A model generated the notes under the pieces. That model was not told where the DNA came from and did not search any database. It was given only the letters and a program-made list of their open reading frames with translations. Below, piece after piece: positions 4,388 to 24,031 of a DNA stretch of 24,031 nucleotides. Each line of letters begins with the position of its first letter. Positions within the stretch are counted from its first letter, which is position 1. The stretch is from positions 1 to 24,031 of IMG/VR virus record IMGVR_UViG_3300031912_000058; one strand, given 5' to 3'. This stretch comes from a virus (Duplodnaviria > Caudoviricetes). Position numbers and translations under genes: made by a program.

Positions 4388-6394
4388 TTAGAAGCCATAG
4401 TACAAATACGTTGGCGTGTACGATGTCGAAGAACCAACGCCACTTGCCGTTCCTGTCCCACTCGCACTGCCAACCGCAGAAACGGTCGCCGCACCAACCC
4501 CACTCCCCAAGCCAGTCCCGCTCGCTGAACCCTGACCCGCAGCTTGTGCAGCCGCTGCACCCGTGCCGGACGCGCTGCCGGTTGCCGTGACCGTCGATCT
4601 ACCAACCGCCGAGGCAGACCCGCTTCCGCTCGCTGCACCCTGCCCAGCTGCCTGTGCCGCCGCTGTGCCCGTGCCGGACGCAGATGCAGGAGACCTAGCC
4701 GTAGAGGCGCCCACGGCACTCGCTGTGCCTGTCCCGCTCGCACTGGCCGGCGAGGATGCAACTGAGCTGCCAACAGCGGAAGCGGACCCGGTTCCTGTTG
4801 CACTCGCAGTCGCCGAGGCGGTCGAGGCACCCACACCGGAAGCCGTGCCCGTTCCACTCGCTGCAGCCGTAGCCAATGCCGTCGAAGCACCGACACCGTT
4901 CGCGGTGCCTGTGCCTGTCGCGCTGCCAACCGATTCCCCAATACCGATCGCAGAGGCCGTGCCCGTCCCGGATGCAGAGCCAACGCTTGACGCAAAGACC
5001 AAACCAACCGCAGAGGCACTGCCTGTCCCCGTCGCAGCGCCTTGACCAGCTGCCTGCGCAGCAGCGGAACCCGTGCCTGTCGCACTACCAATCGAGGAGG
5101 CTGTCGAGGCGCCGACAGCGACTGCGGACCCCGTGCCTGCTGCCGTGCCTTGCCCAGCCGCCTGAGCTGAAGCCGTGCCTGTACCTGTTGCAGAGCCCGT
5201 CGAGCGAGCCACGGATGCACCAACACCAGACGCAGCCCCTGTTCCGGCCGCTGCACCCTGTGCCGCCGCTTGAGCGCTGGCAGTGCCTGTACCAACCGCA
5301 TTACCAGTCGCAGAAGCAACCGATGCCCCGGACGCACTCGCCGTACCGGTTCCAGCTGCCGTGGCCGTTCCCGTAGCGGTGGACGCTCCAACAGCGCTTG
5401 CTGTGCCAATACCAGCCGCTGCAGCGACAAAAGCAGCGCCCGATAGCCCGCTCGCGGTGCCCGTGCCCGTCGCACTGCCAACACCAGTCGCAATCGCAGT
5501 CCCAACAGCACTGGCTGCGCCTGTGCCTGCTGCACTGGCGGTCCCGGAACCAGTCGACGCGCCCGTGGCAGAGGCCGCACCCGTTCCAGCTGCACCACCG
5601 GTCGCAGTGAAGGTTGCGGCTCCAACGGCACTCGCGGCACCAGTTCCAGTCGCAGCTCCAACGGACTGAGCCACCGAGACACCGACACCAGATGCCGCTC
5701 CCGTACCATTAGCATTGCCCTGCCCCGCCGCTTGTGCCTGTGCTGTGCCCGTCCCCGCCGCACTGCCCACCCCAGAATTGGTGGACGCTCCAATCGCGAA
5801 GGCCGTACCCGTCCCCACCGCACTGCCAGCACCCGATACGGTCGAAGCTCCAACCCCGCTCGCATCGCCAATGCCCGCTGCTGCAGCGACAATGGCAGCA
5901 CCCGACAACCCACTTGCCGCGCCCGTCCCCGCCGCATTCCCAACACCAGAAAGGGTCACGGTTGAACCGGCTGCCGCCCCGCCTATTCCCGCCGCATTCC
6001 CAATACAGGAAATGATCGCAGTTGCCGCCGCACTCGCATCGCCCGTACCTGAGGCATTCCCCACTGCAGAAGCAATCGAGACACCAACGCCACTGGCATC
6101 GCCTATTCCACTCGCCGTGCCCGTCCCCGATACGGGCGGACCACTTACAGTGACCAGCGGGCCTATGGTCCATTCGGCGCCATCCCACGTCCAGACCGGT
6201 ATTCCAACCGCTGGAGGGTATGGCCATTGCTCGCCGTAAGTCGGCGAGTCTGGAAAGTCCAACCCCAGCACCGACAATGGTTTGGGATACTTCGTCCATT
6301 TCACGCCATCCCATGTCCAGACCGGCACGCCCTTAGTTGGCGGTGAAGGCCATTGTTGACCGACTGATGGCGTATTTGGAAAATCCAGCGGCAT
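4388..6394 (-). CDS. Gly/Ala/Ser/Thr-repeat putative tail fibre/spike protein
   Basis: 668 aa; duplicated N-terminal LDFPxxPxxGxQWPxPP...PVWTWDGxxW motif followed by dozens of G[SN]A[AST]GTGxASxVG repeats. Confidence 0.8.
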   Translation of the reverse strand: MPLDFPNTPSVGQQWPSPPTKGVPVWTWDGVKWTKYPKPLSVLGLDFPDSPTYGEQWPYPPAVGIPVWTWDGAEWTIGPLVTVSGPPVSGTGTASGIGDASGVGVSIASAVGNASGTGDASAAATAIISCIGNAAGIGGAAAGSTVTLSGVGNAAGTGAASGLSGAAIVAAAAGIGDASGVGASTVSGAGSAVGTGTAFAIGASTNSGVGSAAGTGTAQAQAAGQGNANGTGAASGVGVSVAQSVGAATGTGAASAVGAATFTATGGAAGTGAASATGASTGSGTASAAGTGAASAVGTAIATGVGSATGTGTASGLSGAAFVAAAAGIGTASAVGASTATGTATAAGTGTASASGASVASATGNAVGTGTASAQAAAQGAAAGTGAASGVGASVARSTGSATGTGTASAQAAGQGTAAGTGSAVAVGASTASSIGSATGTGSAAAQAAGQGAATGTGSASAVGLVFASSVGSASGTGTASAIGIGESVGSATGTGTANGVGASTALATAAASGTGTASGVGASTASATASATGTGSASAVGSSVASSPASASGTGTASAVGASTARSPASASGTGTAAAQAAGQGAASGSGSASAVGRSTVTATGSASGTGAAAAQAAGQGSASGTGLGSGVGAATVSAVGSASGTGTASGVGSSTSYTPTYLYYGF
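4430..6130 (-). repeat. Degenerate coding tandem repeats (approx. 14-19 codon units)
   Basis: Recurrent GTGTAS / GSASG / AQAAGQG units; these explain the many shadow ORFs on both strands. Confidence 0.8.
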
Positions 6395-8819: not shown

Positions 8820-9818
8820 TTAGACAGAACTAAAATGCGTCGGACCAAACAGCGCCGATGCATCGGCAGTGCCAATTGCCTGCATCTGCAGGGGCGATGG
8901 CTGAATGAACATCTGCACGCGATAGTTACCGCCAGCCGCCACACTTGACGTATAGGTTCCGCGAACATCTGGCGTGGTTGAGCCTTGGGTTGGGTAAGTC
9001 GAACCCAGCACCACGGTTACAGAGGATAACAGGACAGCCTGATTGTAAGTATAAGCATTTGAGGATACCGACACGCTGGCAAACTGGCCGACATAGTTCA
9101 GACGCGCGGGCCAGCCGTAAACATCAGCCACGCCAATCCACACACCGGTCGAAGTCCAAGTGGTCGAATTTGTGACCGCGCTGATATACTTGAAGGCCTT
9201 CTGACTTGTGACCGTAGAGCTACCAGCTACGCTCCCAGACGAGATAACCGATTCGGTCATCTTGTAGCCATACATATCACGACCGGCGATGGTATAGAAA
9301 CCGGCATTGGTGGTTGTGCAGGAATTGAAGGTAATGCAGCGGCCAGTTCCAGCCGCCGGGTTCCACATCACGATGTTGCCACTTTGGCCATAGGGCACAA
9401 AAGCTGCCGTGCTATCAATGGCCCAAACCGTCACGGCTTGCCCAGTCTCCGGAGCTACAATTTGTGTCTGAATGAACCCAGCACCCGTTGCACTGATTGT
9501 AACGTTCTGCCCGCCACCAGTTACAACACCGCCATTGACAAGACCGTTGGTTGATACTGCGGATGGAATATAATCTATGAAGATTTCGCCGTTATAGAAC
9601 GCGGCGATTTGATTGGCGGAAAATCCAATTGCAGCTGAGGAATTGGGGTTGGCGGAACCTCCGGGATTGTAACGATAGAACGGACGCGGGTCCATCATGC
9701 CCGTACCGAGATCGTCTACCGAAGGTCCCCGATCCTCATTGTACTGCGCGGCAGCACCGGACGACGTGACGGTGATGCCATACTGGACGGATGGGCCAGA
9801 GTTTGCGTTGATGACCAT
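8820..9818 (-). CDS. Putative virion structural protein
   Basis: 332 aa, Ser/Thr/Gly-rich; TIAGRDMYGYKMTE...GVADVYGWP motif; downstream of capsid; TGATG coupling with the HNH gene. Confidence 0.75.
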   Translation of the reverse strand: MVINANSGPSVQYGITVTSSGAAAQYNEDRGPSVDDLGTGMMDPRPFYRYNPGGSANPNSSAAIGFSANQIAAFYNGEIFIDYIPSAVSTNGLVNGGVVTGGGQNVTISATGAGFIQTQIVAPETGQAVTVWAIDSTAAFVPYGQSGNIVMWNPAAGTGRCITFNSCTTTNAGFYTIAGRDMYGYKMTESVISSGSVAGSSTVTSQKAFKYISAVTNSTTWTSTGVWIGVADVYGWPARLNYVGQFASVSVSSNAYTYNQAVLLSSVTVVLGSTYPTQGSTTPDVRGTYTSSVAAGGNYRVQMFIQPSPLQMQAIGTADASALFGPTHFSSV

Positions 9819-10366
9819 CAGGCAACTCCCGAATTGGAAAACTCGCCGTGGATTGCCGCGATGGCATGCTTTCGATCCTCGAAAGCCTCTTCAGCAGTAT
9901 CCCACGATTGTTTTGACCAACTCATCTTGTTATCAACCCTAATATGCCATTTCCATTTTCGACCGCATAGAGCGACACCTTTGAAGCCGCTGGTATTATT
10001 CTTTGCCTTCTTTTGGTTCCACTGCTGCTCTGAAGGTGTGGCCTCCCGTAAGTTCTCCAATCTATCGTCTAACGTTTCACCGTTAGCATGATCGATTGTC
10101 TGTTTAGGCCAACGACCATGAACTAAAGCCCATATCACATGCGTACTGGGGTATCGTTTACCATCGATAGAAACAGATCGATAACAAGTTCCGTTTTCCT
10201 TTGTCCTTCTTACACATCCCGCTGGTGACCCAGCCCGTACTCGCTTTCCCCTGTTTCCACCACCGACAGCAATAACCCAATACAGGCTTCCAGTTTCAGG
10301 CTCGTATCGCAGTAATTCTTGCACCCGCGCGATTGAAGTCCTAGGCTTGTCCGCTTTCCTTGACAT
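9818..10366 (-). CDS. HNH homing endonuclease with C-terminal AP2-like domain
   Basis: LLRYEPETG N-terminus, HVIWALVHGRWP..IDHANGETLDDRLENLREAT (HNH_3 type) and NNTSGFKGV; AAGGAGG SD; more AT-rich than its neighbours. Confidence 0.9.
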   Translation of the reverse strand: MSRKADKPRTSIARVQELLRYEPETGSLYWVIAVGGGNRGKRVRAGSPAGCVRRTKENGTCYRSVSIDGKRYPSTHVIWALVHGRWPKQTIDHANGETLDDRLENLREATPSEQQWNQKKAKNNTSGFKGVALCGRKWKWHIRVDNKMSWSKQSWDTAEEAFEDRKHAIAAIHGEFSNSGVA

Positions 10367-10385
10367 GATATCCTCCTTTTAGTAT

Positions 10386-10419
10386 AAGGGGGTATATCAC
10401 GTCTAGGGTTATCCATCAA
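10386..10419 (-). promoter_or_regulatory. Possible sigma70-type promoter for the HNH gene
   Basis: TTGATG-N17-TATACC with TGn extension in an AT-rich spacer. Confidence 0.25.
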
Positions 10420-10455
10420 TGTCCTTTCTTGTTTTTACCAACCACTTGATTTTCA

Positions 10456-11377
10456 TCACGAAGTTGGGAAGTTGCCATAAACTGATCTCCAATCGTAATA
10501 GCCAAAGGAGTATCGCTGATAACCCTTTACAAGCAGGTTGTCAGTGGTAAATTCGACACTCATGTCCATTTCGAAGGGGATGCGGTCCATGTAGATCAGG
10601 CCATCCACGTTGGTCAGCAGGAACCACGCAAACGAACTGGTCAGGTAATCATTGATGATGAAGCCTTCCTTGAAGCTGTCGTTCATGCCAAGGATGGCGT
10701 TCACGTCGTTGTCTGCCGTGCCGGGCCGAAGCTCTGACCTGAACAGACGGAGCGCAATGGGTTCCAACTGTGTGGGAATCACAGCCTTGCGGCCACGGGC
10801 GTAGATTTTCAGGCCCGCATTATCCCGCCACGTCGAACGGACCGAGATACCTGCATTGAGCAATGAGGTCTCGTTGAGGTCTTGGTCGGTGCCCGGACGG
10901 TTGCCGATGGTATTGCCGTCAATCGGATGGGTCGGCGAGAACAAGGCCTGCCCATCACCGCCCACGGCATTATTAAAAGTCGTACCTGTATTGAAGACAT
11001 TGGCACCATAGATTTCTTCCGTTTGCTGGAAAGATGCCATCAGACCATCGTTGGATGGGCCAAACTCTGCCTTGTAGAGATTGTCATCGATGGCCTTGCG
11101 GGTGATGGCATAACCAAGGCCGATCTCGTTGTGCTCTTGGTTATACACATAGCGCTCGCCAGCCGCATTGTCGAAGGCGGTCACACCACCTTCCTGCTTC
11201 AGCTGCGCGAGCCCCAGATAACGCATCGAGGCCCGGCGCTCTAGCGCCATCTTCGAATCAGTGGTGCGGAAGAGTTTCTGCCACTGACGTTCGATCTGTT
11301 GATACTTGCCGCTGACTCCCCAGAGCTTAAAGCCCCGGCAAGAGCAAATCGCGAATCTGCGCTAATGCTACTGGCAC
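10456..11377 (-). CDS. Major capsid protein (HK97-fold type), interrupted after codon 16 by a 7-nt gap containing UAA
   Basis: Track ORF 10456..11250 has capsid motifs (GYAITRKAIDDNLY, GDGQALFSPTHP, NDVNA, YLTSSFAWFL, RYSFGYYDWR). The frame extends upstream as LWGVSGKYQQIERQWQKLF, and a second frame from GTG 11377 gives MPVALAQIRDLLLPGL*. Joined product is 304 aa. Confidence 0.85.
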
Positions 11378-11510
11378 GGGAATCCTAACCTTTCTCGTTG
11401 CACTGAAGGTGCGTAAATATCATAGCGCAACAGTACTATGATACTACGAAGGACCTTCCTCGAAAGAGAAAGGCTGGGCGAAAAACATGGCCTATGGTCC
11501 ATCTTTCCCA
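11378..11510 (-). promoter_or_regulatory. Structured RNA leader upstream of the capsid gene
   Basis: Five nested inverted repeats spanning the whole intergenic region and overlapping the capsid ribosome-binding site. Confidence 0.6.
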
Positions 11511-12152
11511 TTAGATACCAGTGGTATTCTTTCGATCCCAGTTGTTGGGCGCGACAATCACGATGTTGCCGAGGCTGGTGTTGTCTGTGCCGTTCTGGCC
11601 GGGCGGCACCCAGTTGGAATAAAGGTCCATCAGGCGGAACGGCAGGGTGTTGGTTGTCGCAAAGCTAGAGCTATTCAGCGTCACATTGGACACACCGGTT
11701 AGAGTGTTGCCCATCGAAGATGTGCCTGAACTAAACCCAAAGTTCAGGCCAATGTATGAAGCTGAAATAACTGACCCGGTGGTGCCGCCTTGACCGGTCG
11801 AGCACTGCACCGTCCACAACATTTCAGGGTCGGTGGACACCCACGCCGCAGCATCCAAGGTGCCGGATGATGTCAACACGGACCCGGGAAAATACGGCTG
11901 CCATGTTTTGCGGGCAATAGCAGGCAGGTAGTATTCGCAGCCCATGAAGATGCCACGAATCTGGCCATTGCCAGAAATGGTGGACCCGCCGACGACATAC
12001 GGTCCTGCCGAGGATGTGCAGACTGGATCACCCGTGAAATACAGATTGGCGTCGCTGGATGCGATGGTCAGCTGTTCGAAACCGCCGGTCGGCGGGCTGC
12101 CGTCCAGACGGCGCCACTGACGAAAGCCAAAGGGTGCGATGGTGTTGACCAT
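11511..12152 (-). CDS. Putative head decoration / minor capsid protein
   Basis: 213 aa; MVNTIAPFGFR, YFTGDPV, GIFMGCEY motifs; directly upstream of capsid; AAGGAG SD. Confidence 0.7.
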   Translation of the reverse strand: MVNTIAPFGFRQWRRLDGSPPTGGFEQLTIASSDANLYFTGDPVCTSSAGPYVVGGSTISGNGQIRGIFMGCEYYLPAIARKTWQPYFPGSVLTSSGTLDAAAWVSTDPEMLWTVQCSTGQGGTTGSVISASYIGLNFGFSSGTSSMGNTLTGVSNVTLNSSSFATTNTLPFRLMDLYSNWVPPGQNGTDNTSLGNIVIVAPNNWDRKNTTGI

Positions 12153-12163
12153 GGTAGCTCCTT

Positions 12164-12270
12164 ACGCAGATGTTGCGTTGAGTGAGCCACCACAGCGCGT
12201 GATGGAGGGGATTGGTCCAGCGCGAACCGAGAATTATGGCATTGTTATGTCAGGAACCCAGGAAAGTCAA
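12164..12270 (-). promoter_or_regulatory. Putative internal promoter and leader with tandem GCGCU-loop hairpins
   Basis: TTGACT(12270-12265)-N17-TAACAA(12247-12242); hairpins at 12214-12228, 12187-12205 and 12164-12178. Confidence 0.55.
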
Positions 12271-12271
12271 A

Positions 12272-12808
12272 TTACTCGTCATCCTTAGGAACGACAAACG
12301 GTTCATAGGATTTTTTAACGCCGGATACCCGGCGGGCACTTCTGTGCTTGGTGTCAAACGTGACACCCTCAATATCACCACCAAATATCTGGGCTTCCTT
12401 GCCCTTGACCTGTCCGGTCGCCTTCTGAAATTCCCGTTCCTCCACCATCTGGCACATCTGTTCAGAACGCTCACACAGCACCAAGCCGTCGTATTCGATA
12501 AAGCCTTGATAATCCACGGGATGATACATCCCGGGATGGCGCGTGGCCGGGACAGGTTCCCAGCCACGCGATTGAAAGCGGCCAAAGCGCCGCGCCTGTT
12601 GCTGGCCCAGAACGGAATAGGTTTTCCATTCATAGCGCATGCCCGTAGGCCACAGATGGCGGGGCACGTCGAGGAAACCGCCCTCTTCCTCGGCGTCGAG
12701 GATTTTTGCAAATTCCTCGATGGACACTGGCTTGGCCGTTTTTGGCTTAGCAGGTTCGCCCTCAAAAGGATTGGCTTCAACCGTAGAGGGCTTGGGCGGT
12801 CGTCCCAT
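12272..12808 (-). CDS. Conserved head-module hypothetical protein
   Basis: 178 aa; AAGGAG SD; GMRYEWK...GWEPVP...GLVLCER motif; lies between scaffold and capsid. Confidence 0.8.
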   Translation of the reverse strand: MGRPPKPSTVEANPFEGEPAKPKTAKPVSIEEFAKILDAEEEGGFLDVPRHLWPTGMRYEWKTYSVLGQQQARRFGRFQSRGWEPVPATRHPGMYHPVDYQGFIEYDGLVLCERSEQMCQMVEEREFQKATGQVKGKEAQIFGGDIEGVTFDTKHRSARRVSGVKKSYEPFVVPKDDE

Positions 12809-12830
12809 TTTGGGTTCTCCTTATTATATA

Positions 12831-13256
12831 TTAGGTGGGGGAGGGCTTCGGGGTTGGCGCCTGACCCGGAGGCTTCGGCTTGCCACCGCCACCCTCTGGA
12901 ACATAGACCAGAACCCATCCCCACCTATCTGTATAGTACCATTGCCAGCCTTCACCAAGACCGCCACCCGGCGGGCAGATCGGTGGCTTATCCGGGATAT
13001 CAGGGATTTCAGGTGGGTCCGGCAGAACGATCGGATGGGTTGGAACCGGCGGGGGTGTGTAGATCGGATGGGCCGGTTCGACCGGCGGCCAAGCGCCAAC
13101 CGGCGGCGCAATCGGGTGGGCCGGGTGTGGCGGGATCGGGGTGCCGACACCATAACCCGGGTCTACCTGAAAAGCTCCCATGCCGGTAATCGTTACGTTC
13201 TTGGTATTTCCTGCACTGTCAGTAATGGTACCGACAATAATGACGGATTGAGCCAT
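12831..13256 (-). CDS. Proline-rich hypothetical protein
   Basis: 141 aa; GAAAGGA SD; PAHPI/PAHPI/PTHPI repeats and a W/Y-rich segment. Confidence 0.7.
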   Translation of the reverse strand: MAQSVIIVGTITDSAGNTKNVTITGMGAFQVDPGYGVGTPIPPHPAHPIAPPVGAWPPVEPAHPIYTPPPVPTHPIVLPDPPEIPDIPDKPPICPPGGGLGEGWQWYYTDRWGWVLVYVPEGGGGKPKPPGQAPTPKPSPT

Positions 13257-13267
13257 GTCCTATCCTT

Positions 13268-14347
13268 TCAATTGATGAGTCCATCACGCTTGGCTTTCTG
13301 CATCTTCAGAAGATTCTTGGCATAGGTCACTTCATCGATGCCGGACAGGGCGGCGATCTCGCGCTGTTCTGGATCGAGTGTGATCTTGCCACCGGTCTGC
13401 TTGCCGGTAGATGGGCTGGTAGCAGTCTTAGATGGCGGGGCTGCGACAGGGGCTCTGGTCACTTCCTGTTCCTCTTCTTCAGGTTCGGCATAACCCAACC
13501 GCTGTTCGATATGCTGGAAGTATTGCTTGGACCCGGCCCGGTATTTCAGGTCCTCGGTCTCGATGTGGGCCGCCTGCAAGCGCATGTTGACGCGGTTGTC
13601 GGTCATGGTCTCAGGGTGCGCCTTCAGCCAGTCCTTCTGGCTTTGCAATAAATTGGGAATGGTGTCGATATATTCTTCGACGCTCATTTGCCGCTGCTGT
13701 TGCGGTTGCTGCGGTGGCTGATTGGCGCGCTGCTTGGCCTGATAGGCCTCGCGGCTTTTTTGGTCTTCAATCGCGACCTTGGCATCTTCAAACTGGGCCA
13801 ACCGGCTTTCGGCGCGAGCCAATCGCCGGTTGGCATCTGCCACGAGCTTATGATCCCCAGCCTCACTCGCAGCGGCAATATCGTACTGGGCGCGTTCGGC
13901 TTCCGACTGAGCGCGGCCAATGGCATTGAGAATAGCGTCATATTCCGCATCCTCAGCCCTTACGCGATAGCTTCCAGCTTCGTATTCGCGCTGTTCACGG
14001 GCACGTTCGGCATCCTGCCTGGCGCGGATTTCATTTTGAAGACGCTTGTCGCTTTCGGCATTCGCCCGGCGCATATCCTCAAGCTGGCGCTTGAGATCGC
14101 TTACGTCTTCTTCTTCAGTGATATCTTCATGTAAATCTCGTGATCTATTATCCTTCCCAGCGCCAGAAACAGATGCTTCCTCGCTGCGTAACGCTTTACC
14201 TCTTCCATCTGCTGATCGAGCATCTTCATCAAACGGGTTTTCCCCGACTTCGACTTCGCCTTCCGGCGCGAACTCGACCGTAAGGGGCTTGTCTTTTGGG
14301 ACATTGGCGGCTTCTTCCTTGGTGCGGACAGCACGAATGCGGGGCAT
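13268..14347 (-). CDS. Putative capsid scaffolding protein
   Basis: 359 aa from re-called ATG 14347 (TAATG coupling); acidic N-terminus, long coiled coil, C-terminal ITLDPEQREIAALSGIDEVTYAK helix motif. Confidence 0.7.
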   Translation of the reverse strand: MPRIRAVRTKEEAANVPKDKPLTVEFAPEGEVEVGENPFDEDARSADGRGKALRSEEASVSGAGKDNRSRDLHEDITEEEDVSDLKRQLEDMRRANAESDKRLQNEIRARQDAERAREQREYEAGSYRVRAEDAEYDAILNAIGRAQSEAERAQYDIAAASEAGDHKLVADANRRLARAESRLAQFEDAKVAIEDQKSREAYQAKQRANQPPQQPQQQRQMSVEEYIDTIPNLLQSQKDWLKAHPETMTDNRVNMRLQAAHIETEDLKYRAGSKQYFQHIEQRLGYAEPEEEEQEVTRAPVAAPPSKTATSPSTGKQTGGKITLDPEQREIAALSGIDEVTYAKNLLKMQKAKRDGLIN

Positions 14348-14757
14348 TAGAGGAAAATCTCCGGGTTCTTGGCGCGCATTTTCAAGGTCCGATCCGTCAG
14401 CATACGGCAGGCAGTACCATTGACCATCACCTGCCAGCCGTCGCCGACGCGGTAGACGATCCAATCGCCTACGTTGACTGTTTGCCCCATAAAATCCGTA
14501 GTCTCGTTTGACAGAAAGGCCGTAGGCCCAGTCTTCAAGACAAGCCCCACCTTACCCTGATACTCGTCTTCATCAATGTTCTGGCCGGGCCGAATAATGC
14601 CACCTTTGGTGACTTCAGGGCGAATGTAAATCCCAACCAATATCTGATTGTGGAACACATCAATCTCGGAGAGATCGCCAACGGCTTCAAGCAAAGCCTC
14701 TTTCGGATTGGTCGCCAAGGCCAGTTGCTGGGTCTTGGGAGCAGAGATAACCGGCAT
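14347..14757 (-). CDS. groES: GroES-like co-chaperonin
   Basis: NQILV...TKGGII mobile loop, GLVLKTGP and VGDWIVY motifs; ATG 14757 overlaps the upstream TGA. Confidence 0.8.
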   Translation of the reverse strand: MPVISAPKTQQLALATNPKEALLEAVGDLSEIDVFHNQILVGIYIRPEVTKGGIIRPGQNIDEDEYQGKVGLVLKTGPTAFLSNETTDFMGQTVNVGDWIVYRVGDGWQVMVNGTACRMLTDRTLKMRAKNPEIFL

Positions 14758-14939
14758 CACTTCCTCATATCATCAGCAACGGTTTCCATTTCGGCAAGAA
14801 CAGCCCTCAGGGCATGCAGATAGCCCAAACTGTACTTGTATTCATCGAAGCTCGTCAATCCAGATTGGGTCATGCTCGACGCCATCATGTCGTACATGAT
14901 GCCAATCTTTTCGCGCAAAAGGGCCTCAAACCGGTCCAC
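14757..14939 (-). CDS. Small conserved head-module protein
   Basis: 60 aa; G.LTSFDEYKYSLGYLHAL motif; coupled on both sides. Confidence 0.7.
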   Translation of the reverse strand: MDRFEALLREKIGIMYDMMASSMTQSGLTSFDEYKYSLGYLHALRAVLAEMETVADDMRK

Positions 14940-18390: not shown

Positions 18391-21012
18391 TCAACACGGA
18401 TATAACACGCCCATTCTGGGTCTATACCTGTATTGTTCCTCAATCTCGTATCTGGCCTCTTCGCGGGTCAGGGCATAGCCAAAGTCGCGCAAGTACCGCA
18501 TAGCCATGGTCACGCTGTCAACCAGGTCGTCATGGGTGCCTTTCGGGAAGACGGCGCACTGGTTGATGACCTGATCAGCCCAAGTGATGCCCTTTGGCGT
18601 GTAAACCATCCCATCCGCAAATAGATGAATGATGCTGTGCGCTCGCGCCACCTTGTCCCGGTCAACCATGCCCTTGCCAGGATTGACCAATTCGATGCCA
18701 AACAGGCCGTTAAAGCCAATCAGACGCCTGATTTCCTGACTGACAGACAAGCCAGACGCCTTGCTTTCGATCAGAAGTCTGTCAACCGGCGGACGGCCGG
18801 TTGCCAGATCACCTGCGCAAGATTGGATGACCTTATTGACCAGCGCATGCATTTCCAGACGTTCGTTCCAAGCGTGCAACAGGATAAATTTCGGGTTCCG
18901 GTTGGCGTCCCTGAACAAGCCCCAGATCGTCAAGGCGCTGGCGTCGTTCTCCTGTTTTTCGGTATAGGCTGTATCCAAAGAAGCAAGAATGTACTCAATG
19001 TTTTCAGGAAACTTAGGCGCATCCCAAGTTTGCCAATAGTCGCGGCGAATGATTGAACCACCCCGGATTTCAGGGCTTTGCTGGTACTGACCGGACCATG
19101 CATACTCTTTCTTGGCATGCCGAATTTCTTCACACTGTTCCGTGCCAAACCGTTCCGGCCACGCAAGGTCACCTTCATTGTGACGGGGATCGACCCAAAA
19201 GACTTTCTCCGGGGGAATTTCTTGGTCATCCCAGAGATCGAAGTTTCTGATCTTTCCTTCAACATCATAGCCGCATACCATCCCGTTTGGCACATAGTAC
19301 ATGGGGATGCATAAATGCGTGTACCCGAGATCATTATCCAACGCGACGCCGGACACATCTTCCTCATGCAGCCGCTGCTGTATCACGACAATGGCACTTT
19401 CCTTGGGGTTATTCAGACGATCTGGCACAACTTCGGTAAACCACATATTTGTGGTCCAACGCACCGCTTCACTTTCCATCATCATGGTGTTGTTCGGATC
19501 ATCGATTACAAAGCGGTCTCCGCGTTCACCGACGCCGATGCCGCCGACCGACGTCGCGAGCTTCCATCCGGTCTGATCATTGGCGAACTTGACTTTGGTG
19601 AACTGCTCATTGGAGATACGAAACCGGCCCCGCCAAAGCCGCTGGTAGCGCTCACTCATGACGACATTGCGGCAGCGCAAATTATCGCGCTCTGTCAGAT
19701 GGTTCGAATAGGAAGCACAGACATAGCGATACCATGGTCGATTCTGCGGACCCCATTCCCACGCAGGCCAGAAGACGTTTGTAAGAAGTGAATTTCTCGT
19801 TACAAAACAATGACTTGCTGCAACATAAATGCCCCCATCTACTTCAATACAATTGACGACTTTCTGACCAATCGGAACCACAGATTTTATATATCGATAC
19901 CCAATGCGACTTGCGCGGGGCGGTATTTTTCTGGCGTCGAGACGAGATTGTTTTCTTTCTAGTTTAAATACCTTAGCGCCAAGTGGCGGCGTAAACCTTA
20001 ACCTATTGCCATTACGAGAGGCCTTGATGCCAAGGCTGGATAAAATCCTATGCAACCCATCGATGATCTTTTCATTTTCACTAGTAAATCTGCATCTTAC
20101 CTGACCATCTCGATCTATGTCAGCCTGACCATCACTATCCATAAGACCACGAACAAGTTCCCAGCGCTGGGCTACACTACCCTCAAAATATTCCTCCGGA
20201 ATATGTTTATTTTTGACAAGGTCAAAATAGTGAAGTCGTTCTTTTAGATCATCTATTTGAACTCGGTGGGCGGTTCCAGTACCCACCACTTCCCGCCCAA
20301 GGATTTCTACATGAGCCAAATCCGTTTTCCCGCAATAGATAACTGCCAAACCAGCATCTCCGTCACCAAGCCAATATCCCAACAAATATGGCTCAATTTC
20401 GAGATCGGCACGCGGGAATTGAATAGGAGCGGACATAGGAATGCGATCTGACCGCTGGCGCCCCTTACCAACAAGGAGGTCTCTGGTCTCTACGATTAAG
20501 GACTTTCTGCCCCACTTTCCTCTTCCATCATGGTTTTGATTGGGAAAATCTCTTTCAATCGCCCATTCATGAGCGGCGCCAGCCGTAATCTTTAAACCAT
20601 CGTCAAATGTAATCTCGTAACATGGTTCCAGCACATTGGGCGTACGATTGGTGATCACCCGGGGCAAGCCATCTGGCCCAAAAACATAGTCCCCAATTCT
20701 CAATGCCCCGTGAGGTTTCCAGCCGCCAAGGGTCGGGACCAGGGTTTCGTAAGTTATCGCCTTGGTAAAGCCAGGTGGAACGTTAATTAAGAGCCTCCTT
20801 ATTTCGCCCTTGGTGACAGCCTGTAAATGCTCGGCAATGGCGGTAATCGCCCACCCTTCCACAAAGGGGATGGCTGGTTCCACAACCGGCCAGACATAGC
20901 GCACGAAGGAGAGTAAATCTCCCTCCATGGCCCGGGCTTCAGCCTTTTCACGAAGCTTGGCGGTCGCCAGTGTCACATTTCTGGCTATTTCTGAACGCAG
21001 GAGATCATTCAT
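18391..21012 (-). CDS. terL: Terminase large subunit with intein
   Basis: RLLINVPPGFTK/S Walker A, VIDDP Walker B, QRLHEED, YQQSP, SLDTA, LIESKASG and FPKGTHDDLVDS nuclease motifs. Confidence 0.95.
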   Translation of the reverse strand: MNDLLRSEIARNVTLATAKLREKAEARAMEGDLLSFVRYVWPVVEPAIPFVEGWAITAIAEHLQAVTKGEIRRLLINVPPGFTKAITYETLVPTLGGWKPHGALRIGDYVFGPDGLPRVITNRTPNVLEPCYEITFDDGLKITAGAAHEWAIERDFPNQNHDGRGKWGRKSLIVETRDLLVGKGRQRSDRIPMSAPIQFPRADLEIEPYLLGYWLGDGDAGLAVIYCGKTDLAHVEILGREVVGTGTAHRVQIDDLKERLHYFDLVKNKHIPEEYFEGSVAQRWELVRGLMDSDGQADIDRDGQVRCRFTSENEKIIDGLHRILSSLGIKASRNGNRLRFTPPLGAKVFKLERKQSRLDARKIPPRASRIGYRYIKSVVPIGQKVVNCIEVDGGIYVAASHCFVTRNSLLTNVFWPAWEWGPQNRPWYRYVCASYSNHLTERDNLRCRNVVMSERYQRLWRGRFRISNEQFTKVKFANDQTGWKLATSVGGIGVGERGDRFVIDDPNNTMMMESEAVRWTTNMWFTEVVPDRLNNPKESAIVVIQQRLHEEDVSGVALDNDLGYTHLCIPMYYVPNGMVCGYDVEGKIRNFDLWDDQEIPPEKVFWVDPRHNEGDLAWPERFGTEQCEEIRHAKKEYAWSGQYQQSPEIRGGSIIRRDYWQTWDAPKFPENIEYILASLDTAYTEKQENDASALTIWGLFRDANRNPKFILLHAWNERLEMHALVNKVIQSCAGDLATGRPPVDRLLIESKASGLSVSQEIRRLIGFNGLFGIELVNPGKGMVDRDKVARAHSIIHLFADGMVYTPKGITWADQVINQCAVFPKGTHDDLVDSVTMAMRYLRDFGYALTREEARYEIEEQYRYRPRMGVLYPC
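19792..20760 (-). mobile_element. Class 3-type intein with LAGLIDADG homing endonuclease (323 aa)
   Basis: Junctions PPGFTK/AITYET and FVTRN/SLL; LLGYWLGDG and LVRGLMDSDG motifs; lower GC than the exteins. Confidence 0.92.
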
Positions 21013-21068: not shown

Positions 21069-21266
21069 ATGAACATCAAAGACCTTCGCAGACTGCGTGA
21101 CGACACCCAACGTCGTTGGGCTGAACTCCACCGTCTTGGCGACTACGACGCCAACACCCCTTACATCAAAAGCACCCTCTGGAACTTACTCCATCTGATT
21201 GAACACGCCATTCAGATGCACCCCGACCTCGGAAAGAGGGCCCGCAAGACAAAGAAGGCTCCCTGA
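21069..21266 (+). CDS. Small hypothetical protein (65 aa)
   Basis: Start re-called to ATG 21069 (MNIKDLRRLRDD...) to avoid overlap with terL; TGATG coupling to the next gene. Confidence 0.6.
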   Translation: MNIKDLRRLRDDTQRRWAELHRLGDYDANTPYIKSTLWNLLHLIEHAIQMHPDLGKRARKTKKAP

Positions 21267-21838
21267 TGCAGGCTCCCACCCTCAGATCAGCCCGGCTGAT
21301 CCTGTCCGAACCCATGATCCATCGCGGTATGGATATGACGCATTATCTGAAGTGGCTGAACGACCCGGTCGTCACGCGTTATTCGGAACAACGGCATCAG
21401 AAACACACCAAGGACAGCCAGTACAGATACCTGCAATCCTATATCCACAATGAGGACATGTACTGGGATATCAAGCTTGAGGAAAACCCTATCGGGTCAA
21501 TGACCGCGTTGCTCGACCATGCCAACATGGTCGCCAATGTCGGCATCCTGATCGGGGACGTGCGCTACTGGGGACGTGGCTTTGCCTGCGAAGCCTATGA
21601 CGCCGCCTGTGAATATCTGTTTGGCGAGCGCTTTCGCAAGATCGAAGGCGGCACCATGGCTTGCAATGAGGCCATGATCAGTGTCTTCAAGAAGCTTGAG
21701 TTTACCCAAGAGGCCGTGATCAAGGACCACTTCCTGTTCAACGGACAACCAAAGGACCTGCTCATCTATGGCAAAATCCGCGCCACCAAAGTCCTCGCCC
21801 TCAAATCAGATCAAAGAGAACGGCGAGGCCCAGAATGA
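21266..21838 (+). CDS. GNAT acetyltransferase, RimJ/RimL type
   Basis: LRSARLIL, YLKWLNDPVVTRY, VGILIGDVRYWGRGFA and NEAMISVFKKLEF..E motifs. Confidence 0.88.
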   Translation: MQAPTLRSARLILSEPMIHRGMDMTHYLKWLNDPVVTRYSEQRHQKHTKDSQYRYLQSYIHNEDMYWDIKLEENPIGSMTALLDHANMVANVGILIGDVRYWGRGFACEAYDAACEYLFGERFRKIEGGTMACNEAMISVFKKLEFTQEAVIKDHFLFNGQPKDLLIYGKIRATKVLALKSDQRERRGPE

Positions 21839-22652
21839 TGTCCTCGGGTTCTGGAATGAAATGGCTGAGAAATACGGTCACTCCGATAAGGCCACCAACC
21901 CAGATCAGCACTACCGCAAGCTTGAAATAGAATCTATTCTTCGGGTCATTGGCTTGATGCCCCATGAGACCATCCTTGACGCTGGTTGCGGGAACGGCTT
22001 CACCACGGATATGATTGGCGACAAGTTTCCGGATTCTGATGTTGTTGGGGTGGATTTTTCGCCGAAGATGATCAAACAGGCGAAGGATTTGGGCAGTGGA
22101 CCCAATATCGAGTTCCACGAGGGCGACGTTCTATCTCTGTCGCGCAATCGATATCTTATTCCGCGTCATTATGACGTGGTCATTTCTACGCGCTGTCTCA
22201 TCAATTTATCGAACTGGGAAGAACAGAAAATTGCCATTCTCGAAATGAGAAAGATGCTGAAACCTGATGGTCGCCTGATCTTGGTGGAAAACTTCAAGGA
22301 AGGCTTGGCAAACCTCAATCTCATTCGCAACGCGCTTGGCCTACCTCCGATCACCGAACGCTGGCACAATTTCTACATTCCGGATGACAGTTTCAAGCGA
22401 TTTATTGCCCAGGGACAGAACATCTTCGCGCTCGAATACAGCGAAAACATCGGCCATTTCTACTACATGGCGTCCCGTGTGCTCTATGCCAAAATCTGCC
22501 AGGAAAAAGGTATCGAACCCGATTATGACAGCGATATCAATAGAATTGCAGCGCAGATGCCGACCTTCGGCAATGAATGCGGATGCTCTCCCAATCTCCT
22601 TCTGGTCTTGAGGAACGCAAATGGAAGTACCCCAAACCGAAGCCTTTCTTAA
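21768..22652 (+). CDS. Class I SAM-dependent methyltransferase
   Basis: ILDAGCGNG motif I, VGVDFSPKMI, YDVVISTRCLINL, LKPDGRLILVE. Confidence 0.9.
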   Translation: MAKSAPPKSSPSNQIKENGEAQNDVLGFWNEMAEKYGHSDKATNPDQHYRKLEIESILRVIGLMPHETILDAGCGNGFTTDMIGDKFPDSDVVGVDFSPKMIKQAKDLGSGPNIEFHEGDVLSLSRNRYLIPRHYDVVISTRCLINLSNWEEQKIAILEMRKMLKPDGRLILVENFKEGLANLNLIRNALGLPPITERWHNFYIPDDSFKRFIAQGQNIFALEYSENIGHFYYMASRVLYAKICQEKGIEPDYDSDINRIAAQMPTFGNECGCSPNLLLVLRNANGSTPNRSLS

Positions 22653-23232
22653 AGGCGAAGGCGATGCATGGTATCATCGCAACAAGGACAAGCCAAAGCG
22701 TGACTCCATCACGCCAATGGTCATAAATCTTGACCTGAAGCCCACAGAGATCGTCGTGTTTGGTTGCTCTGACGGCTGGCAAGTTGACAATCTGCACCAG
22801 CTTTTTCCAGACGCCCATATTCTCGGCGTTGATCCATCACACGACGCCATCGAGGATGCACGCAAGTCATACAAAGCCCCACGGGTCGAATTCATGGTTG
22901 GCACGGTTGATTTCCCCAAGATCAAATCCGCCGATCTGATCATCTATGCCTTTTGCCTATATCTGGTGGACCGCAACCTGTTGCAACGTGTCGTCATGGA
23001 AGCCGACGCTATGTTGCGCGAAGGTGGCCATATCATCATCCATGATTTTGCTGCCCTGAATCCGCGCAAGGTGCCCTACAAGCACAAGGAAGGCCTGTTC
23101 TCCTACAAGATGAACTATAGCAAACTTTGGACGGGCAACCCGGCCTATCAGTTGATCGGTGAGTTTTACCCCGATACAGAAACCCGCGTTTGGGCTTTGC
23201 GCAAAGATACAGATCAGGGATGGGCCCTATGA
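22621..23232 (+). CDS. Class I SAM-dependent methyltransferase
   Basis: GAGGA SD; FLKGEGDAWYHRN, VFGCSDG (variant motif I), GVDPS, LREGGHIIIHDF. Confidence 0.82.
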   Translation: MEVPQTEAFLKGEGDAWYHRNKDKPKRDSITPMVINLDLKPTEIVVFGCSDGWQVDNLHQLFPDAHILGVDPSHDAIEDARKSYKAPRVEFMVGTVDFPKIKSADLIIYAFCLYLVDRNLLQRVVMEADAMLREGGHIIIHDFAALNPRKVPYKHKEGLFSYKMNYSKLWTGNPAYQLIGEFYPDTETRVWALRKDTDQGWAL

Positions 23233-24031
23233 AAATCGGCATCCTCGGCTATGGATCAATTGGACGGCGACATACCAAGAACGCTACAGCGCTTGGTCAT
23301 CAAACTCGCGTTTATGATCCTCAAATCGGTGACTTCACGCGTGAACATGTCATCGGATGGGCCGACGCCATCATTGTGGCCTCACCTACGGAAGATCACG
23401 TTATTGATCTTCATGATTCCCTTGCATCCGGAAAACACGTGCTGGTCGAAAAGCCGATTGGCTATGATAGCCCGAATACAATCGAGAACATTTTTTCAAA
23501 CGCCGCGTATGACCTCATTGTCGCCACCGGCTTCAATCTGCGTTTTCATTCCTGCGTTCAAGAAACAGTCAGAGTTCTCAATAAGGGCTTGCTCGGTGAC
23601 ATTCAGTGCGCATCGTTCTCCGTTTTGCAGAAATCCGACAAATCGCCCTATCTGCGTGATGGCGTCATCCGAAATTGGGCTGTTCATGAGATCGATCTGG
23701 CGCATTTCTTCTTCGGCGAGGGCGGAGTCATTCAATGCACCGCTCCAATGGACGATCAAGGCAAGGATTCGACCGAGTGCTTCATCACTATGAAGTTTCC
23801 GTCCGTTGCGGACCGGGTTTTCATTCAGGCCGACTACTACACCGACCCACAGCAGCGATTTTACTGGATCGAGGGCAGCGTAGCTTCAATTTATGTCAAC
23901 CTGATCCGCCGTGAGATCGCCATGCGCATCAATGGCGAAGGCATGGCATTGTATTTTCAGGGTCATGACAGCTTTGATGACAACTATGTCGATGAACTCA
24001 AGACGTTCATCAACGTCATAGAGACTTCAGA
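23229..24031 (+). CDS. Gfo/Idh/MocA-family NAD(P)-dependent oxidoreductase, truncated by the window edge
   Basis: Not in the track; ATGA overlap; hand translation open to the end: MKIGILGYGSIGRRH...IIVASPTEDH...HVLVEKP...GFNLRFH...HEID. Confidence 0.9.
   Translation, partial: MKIGILGYGSIGRRHTKNATALGHQTRVYDPQIGDFTREHVIGWADAIIVASPTEDHVIDLHDSLASGKHVLVEKPIGYDSPNTIENIFSNAAYDLIVATGFNLRFHSCVQETVRVLNKGLLGDIQCASFSVLQKSDKSPYLRDGVIRNWAVHEIDLAHFFFGEGGVIQCTAPMDDQGKDSTECFITMKFPSVADRVFIQADYYTDPQQRFYWIEGSVASIYVNLIRREIAMRINGEGMALYFQGHDSFDDNYVDELKTFINVIETS

Follow-up and report, generated by a model that had tools for sequence, protein, structure and literature searches.

The major capsid gene on a 24,031-nt stretch of tailed-phage DNA (the whole of which is referred to here as the window) is interrupted near its 5′ end by 7 extra nucleotides that include a stop codon, and this interruption is a real feature of the gene. 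A second phage, G001, carries a 6-nt version. Comparison of the two suggests that the gap, 7 nt in one and 6 nt in the other, is probably crossed by a programmed ribosomal hop from CUU to CUC, giving a capsid protein of 304 aa, and that the arrangement is borne on a cassette; the gap is likely to have arrived with a mobile HNH nuclease.

Results

The capsid gene is interrupted

On the minus strand of the window, GTG 11377, with an AGGA ending 5 nt upstream, opens 16 codons (translation VPVALAQIRDLLLPGL) that are closed by a stop, CUU-UAA. Read from 11328, the +1 frame gives KLWGVSGKY… and stays free of stops down to 10456, and its product matches the PHROG 371 major head protein. Capsid homologs are 304 aa long, with the N-terminus MPVALAQIRDLLLPGLWGVSGKY. 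As this length is exactly 16 + 288, the 7 nt are extra, and their removal brings back the length of the family. L5, D10, L11, L12, P14, G15, L16, G18 and G21 were invariant among 58 aligned capsid homologs. The capsid has no sequence relative in the PDB, and its AlphaFold model (pLDDT 36) was too poor for use. CUU and CUC would both be decoded by tRNA-Leu(GAG); neither the window nor G001 contains tRNA genes. Features of the locus are listed in Table 1.

Table 1. Features of the interrupted capsid locus (window coordinates).
Feature	Position	Strand	Remarks
213-aa gene upstream, in synteny among relatives, without a family match	11511..12152	-	
Structured leader, 133 nt	11378..11510	-	z -4.16; alignable to that of G001
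Hairpin of the leader, conserved between window and G001 (one C-G/G-C double change)	11419..11442	-	
SD-like elements GAGAAAGG and AGGA	11383..11396	-	First predicted to pair with 11466-11473
Capsid codons 1-15, GTG start; apparently part of a laterally shared cassette	11333..11377	-	84% identity to G001; remainder of the gene, 65%
5′ stem-loop predicted within codons 2-13, its end 6 nt short of take-off	11339..11373	-	
Hairpin enclosing the gap; core CCRGGG/CUCUGG, gap as its loop	11316..11342	-	
SD-like RGGG abutting take-off, 7 nt before landing (6 nt in G001)	11333..11336	-	
Putative take-off codon CUU (Leu16), whose 3 nt begin the 7-nt gap	11330..11332	-	Same in G001
Stop codon UAA (UGA in G001)	11327..11329	-	
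Extra G bringing the gap to 7 nt	11326..11326	-	Absent from G001 in alignment
Putative landing codon CUC	11323..11325	-	Sole CUY triplet, in any frame, within ~50 nt of take-off in both phages
Post-gap major capsid ORF (residues 16-304)	10456..11325	-	PHROG 371; Mu-like gpT, E 1e-4; PF25209 (precomputed)
Downstream HNH endonuclease	9818..10366	-	Probably not the gap's partner

The gap is genuine and rare

A first-pass annotation, made from the window alone, had described a capsid gene broken from GTG 11377 by a 7-nt gap, CUU-UAA-G-CUC. This was borne out: 100% identity across the site was seen in another four contigs (L002, L087, L090 and the pair L001/L089, taken as one; L088, of the window's own length, was left out of this tally). 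Logan contigs from 5/8 runs (X6, X12, X7, X20 and X1, the last of which may be the window's own source run) bridged the gap without break or joint, and in runs X4, X13 and X23 the site was not covered. The run evidence consists of assembled contigs rather than raw reads, a level at which rare alleles are invisible. The assembly error that had also been entertained is therefore excluded. The 24 listed holders are soil metagenomes, which may all stem from one campaign; no RNA data set was among them, which bears in neither direction on expression. Proteins of the window phage were found on 18–21 contigs of up to 75.6 kb, the genome size of the family. Because the copies are identical at the site, selection after acquisition is not measurable in the window phage.

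Intact 5′ ends accounted for 302 of 304 distinct homologous sequences (301 flagged as such plus L043, an alignment offset). No indel was present between Met1 and Gly21 in any of 202 full-length homologs, nor did any of 167 intact full-length capsid genes start with GTG. A scan for gaps of 1–30 nt between DLLLPG and LWG gave 26 matches, comprising two copies of the window, L372 (described below) and 23 unrelated sequences. No third gap lineage was found: a stop after LLPGL occurred in viral contigs only in the two window copies and G001, and the same pattern gave 13 matches in GTDB, none of them a capsid. Scanning with AIKDLLLPG, the site was intact in all 120 stretches listed of about 1300; with QIRDLLLPG, the 119 listed of about 280 included two interrupted sites (a window copy and G001) and two unrelated sequences. 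The gap lineages found number two only. Two other candidates, L084 and L085, were rejected as chance matches, and the 280-aa record P0212 sits on a contig equal in length to L215, in which the gene is intact. Another capsid homolog, known from a single contig, has a 14-nt deletion and frameshift near codon 215 (L291:698-701), which is probably an error or a pseudogene.

A second phage carries a 6-nt version

The first-pass annotation had suggested looking for the same gap in homologous 5′ ends; the scan for gaps described above brought to light the version in G001, in which one pair of the stem differs (G-U versus A-U). The insertion is therefore not private to one genome, and a template-switch mutation confined to one defective prophage, as raised earlier, is unlikely. 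L372 sits in G001, a 71,643-bp record with one capsid match that, on the basis of its terminal repeats, is a complete phage genome. The site reads GTG...CCA GGG CTT TGA CTC TGG, placing CUU-UGA-CUC at the same codon with an in-frame gap of 6 nt; this gap is known from one contig, assembled in three sources. Common to both phages are the GUG start, a related leader, the same hairpin, and the take-off and landing codons. TGA is an ordinary stop in G001, where it closes 43/86 ORFs, and reassignment of the codon was rejected on this ground; the other G001 genes that aligned to window genes had no internal stops.

Neither simple shift nor readthrough serves both phages. A +1 shift in G001 ends 4 codons on, after DSGA, and readthrough in the window ends after 23 codons, so that only a frame-independent event repairs both genes; a CUU-to-CUC hop restores 304 aa in each. 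The prfB-type +1 shift that had been offered as an alternative fails on the G001 stop, and also on the SD-like run, which abuts CUU. The hop is the best reading because the second phage keeps take-off, stop and landing while the gap shifts from 7 to 6 nt. Of the earlier proposal of a hop with the architecture of T4 gene 60, the hop itself has been strengthened by the codons kept in G001, but gap size, target gene and stem geometry depart from the T4 model.

The capsids of the two phages are 67% identical after the gap, and in a tree each nests among intact relatives; a joint clade of the two was rejected (p-AU 0.0006, in a test of 36/79 rows made up of those nearest to either phage, HNH carriers and outgroups). 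Identity between window and G001 is 84% over the first 45 nt and 65% downstream. The nearest intact sisters of the window phage and G001 show 69% and 62%, respectively, over the first 45 nt, and 81% and 83% beyond. The 5′ identity of 84% is in itself unexceptional, being reached by 7.8% of 1491 comparable pairs. The first 15 nt are common to the two gap phages, and codons 2–5 are shared by none of 71 intact genes. The 5′ codons of the pair differ by five synonymous changes and one Ala/Ser change. Judged from these alignments, the first 15 codons of both genes appear to be mosaic and laterally shared.

Candidate recoding signals

A candidate 5′ stem-loop is predicted before the take-off codon. 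Of its 13 named pairs, which were defined from the G001 structure, 11 can form in the window and all 13 in G001, compared with a maximum of 10 among 104 intact 5′ ends, and synonymous sites show one A-U/G-C double change. The predicted energy is only modestly low, with 7/104 intact ends as low; in both phages it lies inside the synonymous null, of which fractions of 0.32 and 0.14 were as low. RGGG is present in both gap phages and in 3/107 MP-type 5′ ends, a set unscreened for stops. The anti-SD duplex at RGGG is estimated at about -5 kcal/mol in the window and -3 kcal/mol in G001, and the best anti-SD pairing abuts or overlaps CUU.

The hairpin over the gap, already noticed in the first-pass annotation, held up on folding (UUA loop, -14.9 kcal/mol, z -2.58; 3/200 shuffles as good); longer windows around it were unexceptional (z -0.5 and +0.1). 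All 6 pairs of its core can form in both gap phages, and the 6-bp stem is possible in 2/101 intact Trp17-type genes. Take-off codon and stop lie at the apex and the landing codon in the 3′ arm. Since the hairpin would hide the landing codon during a hop, it may act at the DNA level or be a by-product. The gap stem and RGGG overlap and are not independent signals. Stem-loop, RGGG and gap stem are all leads, resting on two sequences.

The leader and an antisense nuclease

HEG-less relatives have a spacer of about 10–15 nt before the capsid gene, with an SD and ATG. The window leader probably derives from an antisense NUMOD4-HNH gene, as a remnant of its 5′ end, because it aligns with the G001 leader and encodes on its opposite strand IIAQQYY, resembling MIVQRYY of the G001 HNH. 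The hairpin at 11419..11442 covers, on the opposite strand, the annotated start of the G001 HNH gene. G001 was the only relative of the leader among the fetched loci, and none was found among cultured phages. A sigma-70 promoter was looked for in the leader and not found. An ATG overlapping the stop of the upstream gene (TAATG) begins a frame of 47 codons that crosses the leader (11363-11512, minus strand) and ends inside capsid codons 4–5; no G001 counterpart was noticed, and the frame may be due to chance. The G001 leader for its part has an extra 7-bp inverted repeat with TTGACGA arms (L372:1125-1142), absent from the window. An extra 133-aa ORF (L509:191-592) lies between the upstream gene and the HNH gene in G001, and DNA similar to it is found directly before the capsid gene in L466, the intact sister of G001.

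In G001 an intact 276-aa NUMOD4-HNH gene, likely to be selfish, starts 60 nt upstream of the capsid gene in antisense orientation; this gene is missing from the window. Seven other 5′ ends (L134, L123, L116, L101, L142, L437 and L094) combine a related antisense NUMOD4-HNH gene, 38–60% identical to that of G001 over the matched parts, with an intact capsid gene. As these seven are free of gaps, the nuclease can do without one. Such genes have been inserted repeatedly into the intergene before the capsid, and the DNA upstream is common to L101 and L116 although their capsid backgrounds are divergent. Deviation from the family mode in codons 2–15 was 9.4 in the seven HNH-adjacent 5′ ends (a set excluding L091, L115 and G001) versus 6.7 in 90 others (p 0.004, relatedness uncontrolled); in codons 30–43 the same groups did not differ (p 0.4). 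This deviation would fit a nuclease that co-converts the first codons of the capsid gene, the gap being one lineage's block on cutting, and the context suggests a mobile cassette of nuclease plus hop, comparable to T4 mobA/gene 60. No support emerged for the earlier suggestion that capsid synthesis is gated by release-factor or tRNA status; it is a homing-endonuclease cassette that the surroundings indicate.

HNH-like genes also occur downstream of the capsid in 19/199 loci. The downstream HNH was rejected as partner of the gap, 18 of the 19 carriers having an intact capsid gene and the downstream nuclease of G001 being a different protein.

Other genes

The remaining window genes had been described as intact, and those checked match their expected families. 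The terminase large subunit (18391-21012, minus strand, 873 aa) has a LAGLIDADG-type insert at about residues 84–409, probably an intein, which is lacking from the G001 terminase. A GroES-like co-chaperonin gene (14347-14760, minus strand) lies within the head module, and a 668-aa repetitive protein rich in Ala, Gly, Ser and Thr is encoded at 4388-6394 (minus strand). At 21266-24031 (plus strand) the window carries GNAT, two methyltransferase and GFO/IDH/MocA oxidoreductase genes. G001 has a larger cluster (40129-48928, minus strand), in which the starts of the ORFs look, by eye, like nucleotide-sugar or nonulosonic-acid enzymes.

Alternative explanations

That a single shifty site is recoded in two ways, by a +1 shift (CUU to UUU) in the window and by UGA readthrough in G001 with two extra residues in each, is unlikely. 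CUU-U-stop is indeed the RF2 shift site, as set out in PMC5009743, and the frames required are open, +1 in the window and 0 past the UGA in G001. The mechanism, however, would have to switch through a 1-nt indel and to tolerate an insertion in a segment where 0/202 homologs have one; RGGG lies 0 nt rather than 3 nt from CUU, and the kept CUC would be left unexplained. Excision of the 6–7 nt loop from the mRNA and religation of the ends, whether the work of the structured leader or of enzymes from host or phage, would likewise be frame-independent. In both phages the gap coincides exactly with the loop of a conserved 6-bp stem that few intact genes can form (2/101), and the leader is strongly structured. 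Such a mini-intron is nevertheless very improbable. An Rfam search of 9500-13000 gave nothing at threshold, its two sub-threshold matches both lying outside the site, where neither a group I intron nor a known ribozyme core was found. Group I introns have a U before them and a G at their end, and no excision register satisfies both rules here; the in-frame stop, moreover, is kept right after CUU in both phages. To our knowledge, excision of such a loop is without bacterial precedent.

The two readings in which no ribosome or splicing step joins the segments carry slimmer chances still. One is a gene split into a 16-aa peptide and a capsid begun from an internal start (ATG 11250 in the window, codon 25 in G001). 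Gene callers make the same choice, with records of 264, 256 and 280 aa, and genes split by nucleases into working halves are described in 10.1101/2022.08.31.505936. Yet the window offers no in-frame ATG, GTG or TTG before codon 41, so that 24 conserved residues would go missing; the start would have to differ between the two phages; and nine N-terminal residues between L5 and G21 are invariant in the 58 aligned homologs. We see hardly any likelihood in this split, and give the least credence of all to capsid genes that are simply dead, in defective or helper-dependent phages. A second capsid gene could lie elsewhere, the window being a 24-kb fragment, and its 24 listed holders may share one campaign. 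Against this, G001 is a complete genome in which the capsid gene is single and the other aligned genes are free of stops; proteins of the window phage are spread over the 18–21 contigs of up to 75.6 kb; and the cassette reached two clades and diverged there with its 16 codons still open.

Discussion

Under the favoured reading, the CUU-to-CUC hop, the ribosome would pause with CUU in the P site and the stop in the A site, and peptidyl-tRNA-Leu(GAG) would let go of its wobble codon CUU. A forward push might come from refolding of the stem-loop in codons 2–13 and from anti-SD pairing to RGGG at zero spacing. The tRNA would then re-pair at the better-matched CUC, with RGGG now 6–7 nt upstream, and translation would resume at UGG. 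By analogy with T4 mobA/gene 60, the gap would probably serve to shield the capsid gene against cutting by the antisense NUMOD4-HNH next to it, and the window phage would since have lost the nuclease. Yield is the main weakness of the hop: a capsid needs very high output, and unprogrammed hops, among them the stop hops treated in 10.1101/2024.12.09.627546, are low-level.

Programmed bypasses described in the sources consulted are those of T4 gene 60 and its homologs, the yeast mitochondrial byps and the terminase of Streptomyces phage phiHau3, and searches of the open-licence literature turned up no account of a capsid gene read by bypassing. In T4 gene 60, according to 10.1101/2022.08.31.505936, the insert blocks nicking by MobA and outlasts the nuclease. 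The capsid gap would work alike without being a member of that system, and no sequence homology is claimed. As in T4, take-off and landing codons are matched (CUU/CUC in both phages), a stop directly follows take-off (UAA in the window, UGA in G001), and an essential gene would be kept at its normal protein length. The 5′ stem-loop of gene 60 may have a counterpart in the candidate a few nt before take-off. There is also an adjacent free-standing HNH gene, intact in G001 and present in the window only as a probable remnant; the nuclease can apparently be lost while the gap stays, and a divergent tract looks co-converted. The mini-SD of gene 60 lies ~6 nt before landing (stem-loop and mini-SD spacings are given in 10.1101/2024.12.09.627546); RGGG lies 7 and 6 nt before CUC, but 5′ of the gap. 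The differences are considerable: the gap is 6–7 nt rather than 50 nt, the codons are CUU/CUC rather than GGA/GGA, and the target is a major capsid gene, unsplit and without NTE/CTE tails, rather than a topoisomerase. The nuclease here is a NUMOD4-HNH, antisense and upstream; the stop occupies a hairpin loop, whereas in T4 the stem-loop's 5′ side contains the take-off codon; and one version, that of G001, is in frame.

In size and proposed signals, the capsid gap is closer to the phiHau3 terminase than to T4 gene 60. PMC10732093 reports bypass gaps of 10 nt in the phiHau3 terminase and one of 7 nt in a prophage of S. catenulae, demonstrates by mass spectrometry bypassing of phiHau3 g6/7 in E. 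coli with UAA replacing UUA, and proposes a 5′ stem-loop and flanking SD as signals, as well as regulation. Shared with phiHau3 are the very short gap and the slow A-site codon right after take-off; its gap of 7–10 nt with 5′ stem-loop and flanking SD may have a counterpart here in gaps of 7 and 6 nt and in a candidate stem-loop and RGGG, both weakly supported. Unlike phiHau3, in which the rare sense codon UUA is the trigger, both phages have true stops, and the gene is that of the capsid, with a link to a nuclease; the main text of PMC10732093 does not contain the word 'homing'.

The prfB (RF2) +1 shift shares the CUU-U-stop core, which in G001 extends to CUU UGA C, but its SD-like run stands at 3 nt and not 0 nt, and the main ORF is in the +1 frame in the window only, the G001 ORF being in frame 0 with +1 a dead end. 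The synthetic stop hop of PMC5009743, in which 9 nt specify one amino acid, has exactly the layout of CUU-UGA-CUC in G001, although a natural case must be efficient and programmed. The same source knew of no natural in-frame stop hop as of 2016.

The broader proposition, that a frame-independent stop-hop of 6–7 nt supplies the major capsid and spreads with the antisense NUMOD4-HNH that it blocks, we regard as evenly poised. If it is true, CUU-UGA-CUC in G001 is a natural in-frame stop hop, and the pair of 6-nt and 7-nt gaps is a ready test of whether a 5′ stem-loop and zero-spaced SD set the distance of the hop. A capsid hop would have to be efficient with only 16 codons and ~50 nt of context, which would be the smallest testable module for programmed bypass. 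Genes of this kind get miscalled, as truncated capsids or as readthrough. The finding would make nuclease-plus-bypass cassettes a general third shield for homing endonucleases, beside introns and inteins, and would place a scaled-down equivalent of the bypass in T4 gene 60 within the virion's most abundant protein.
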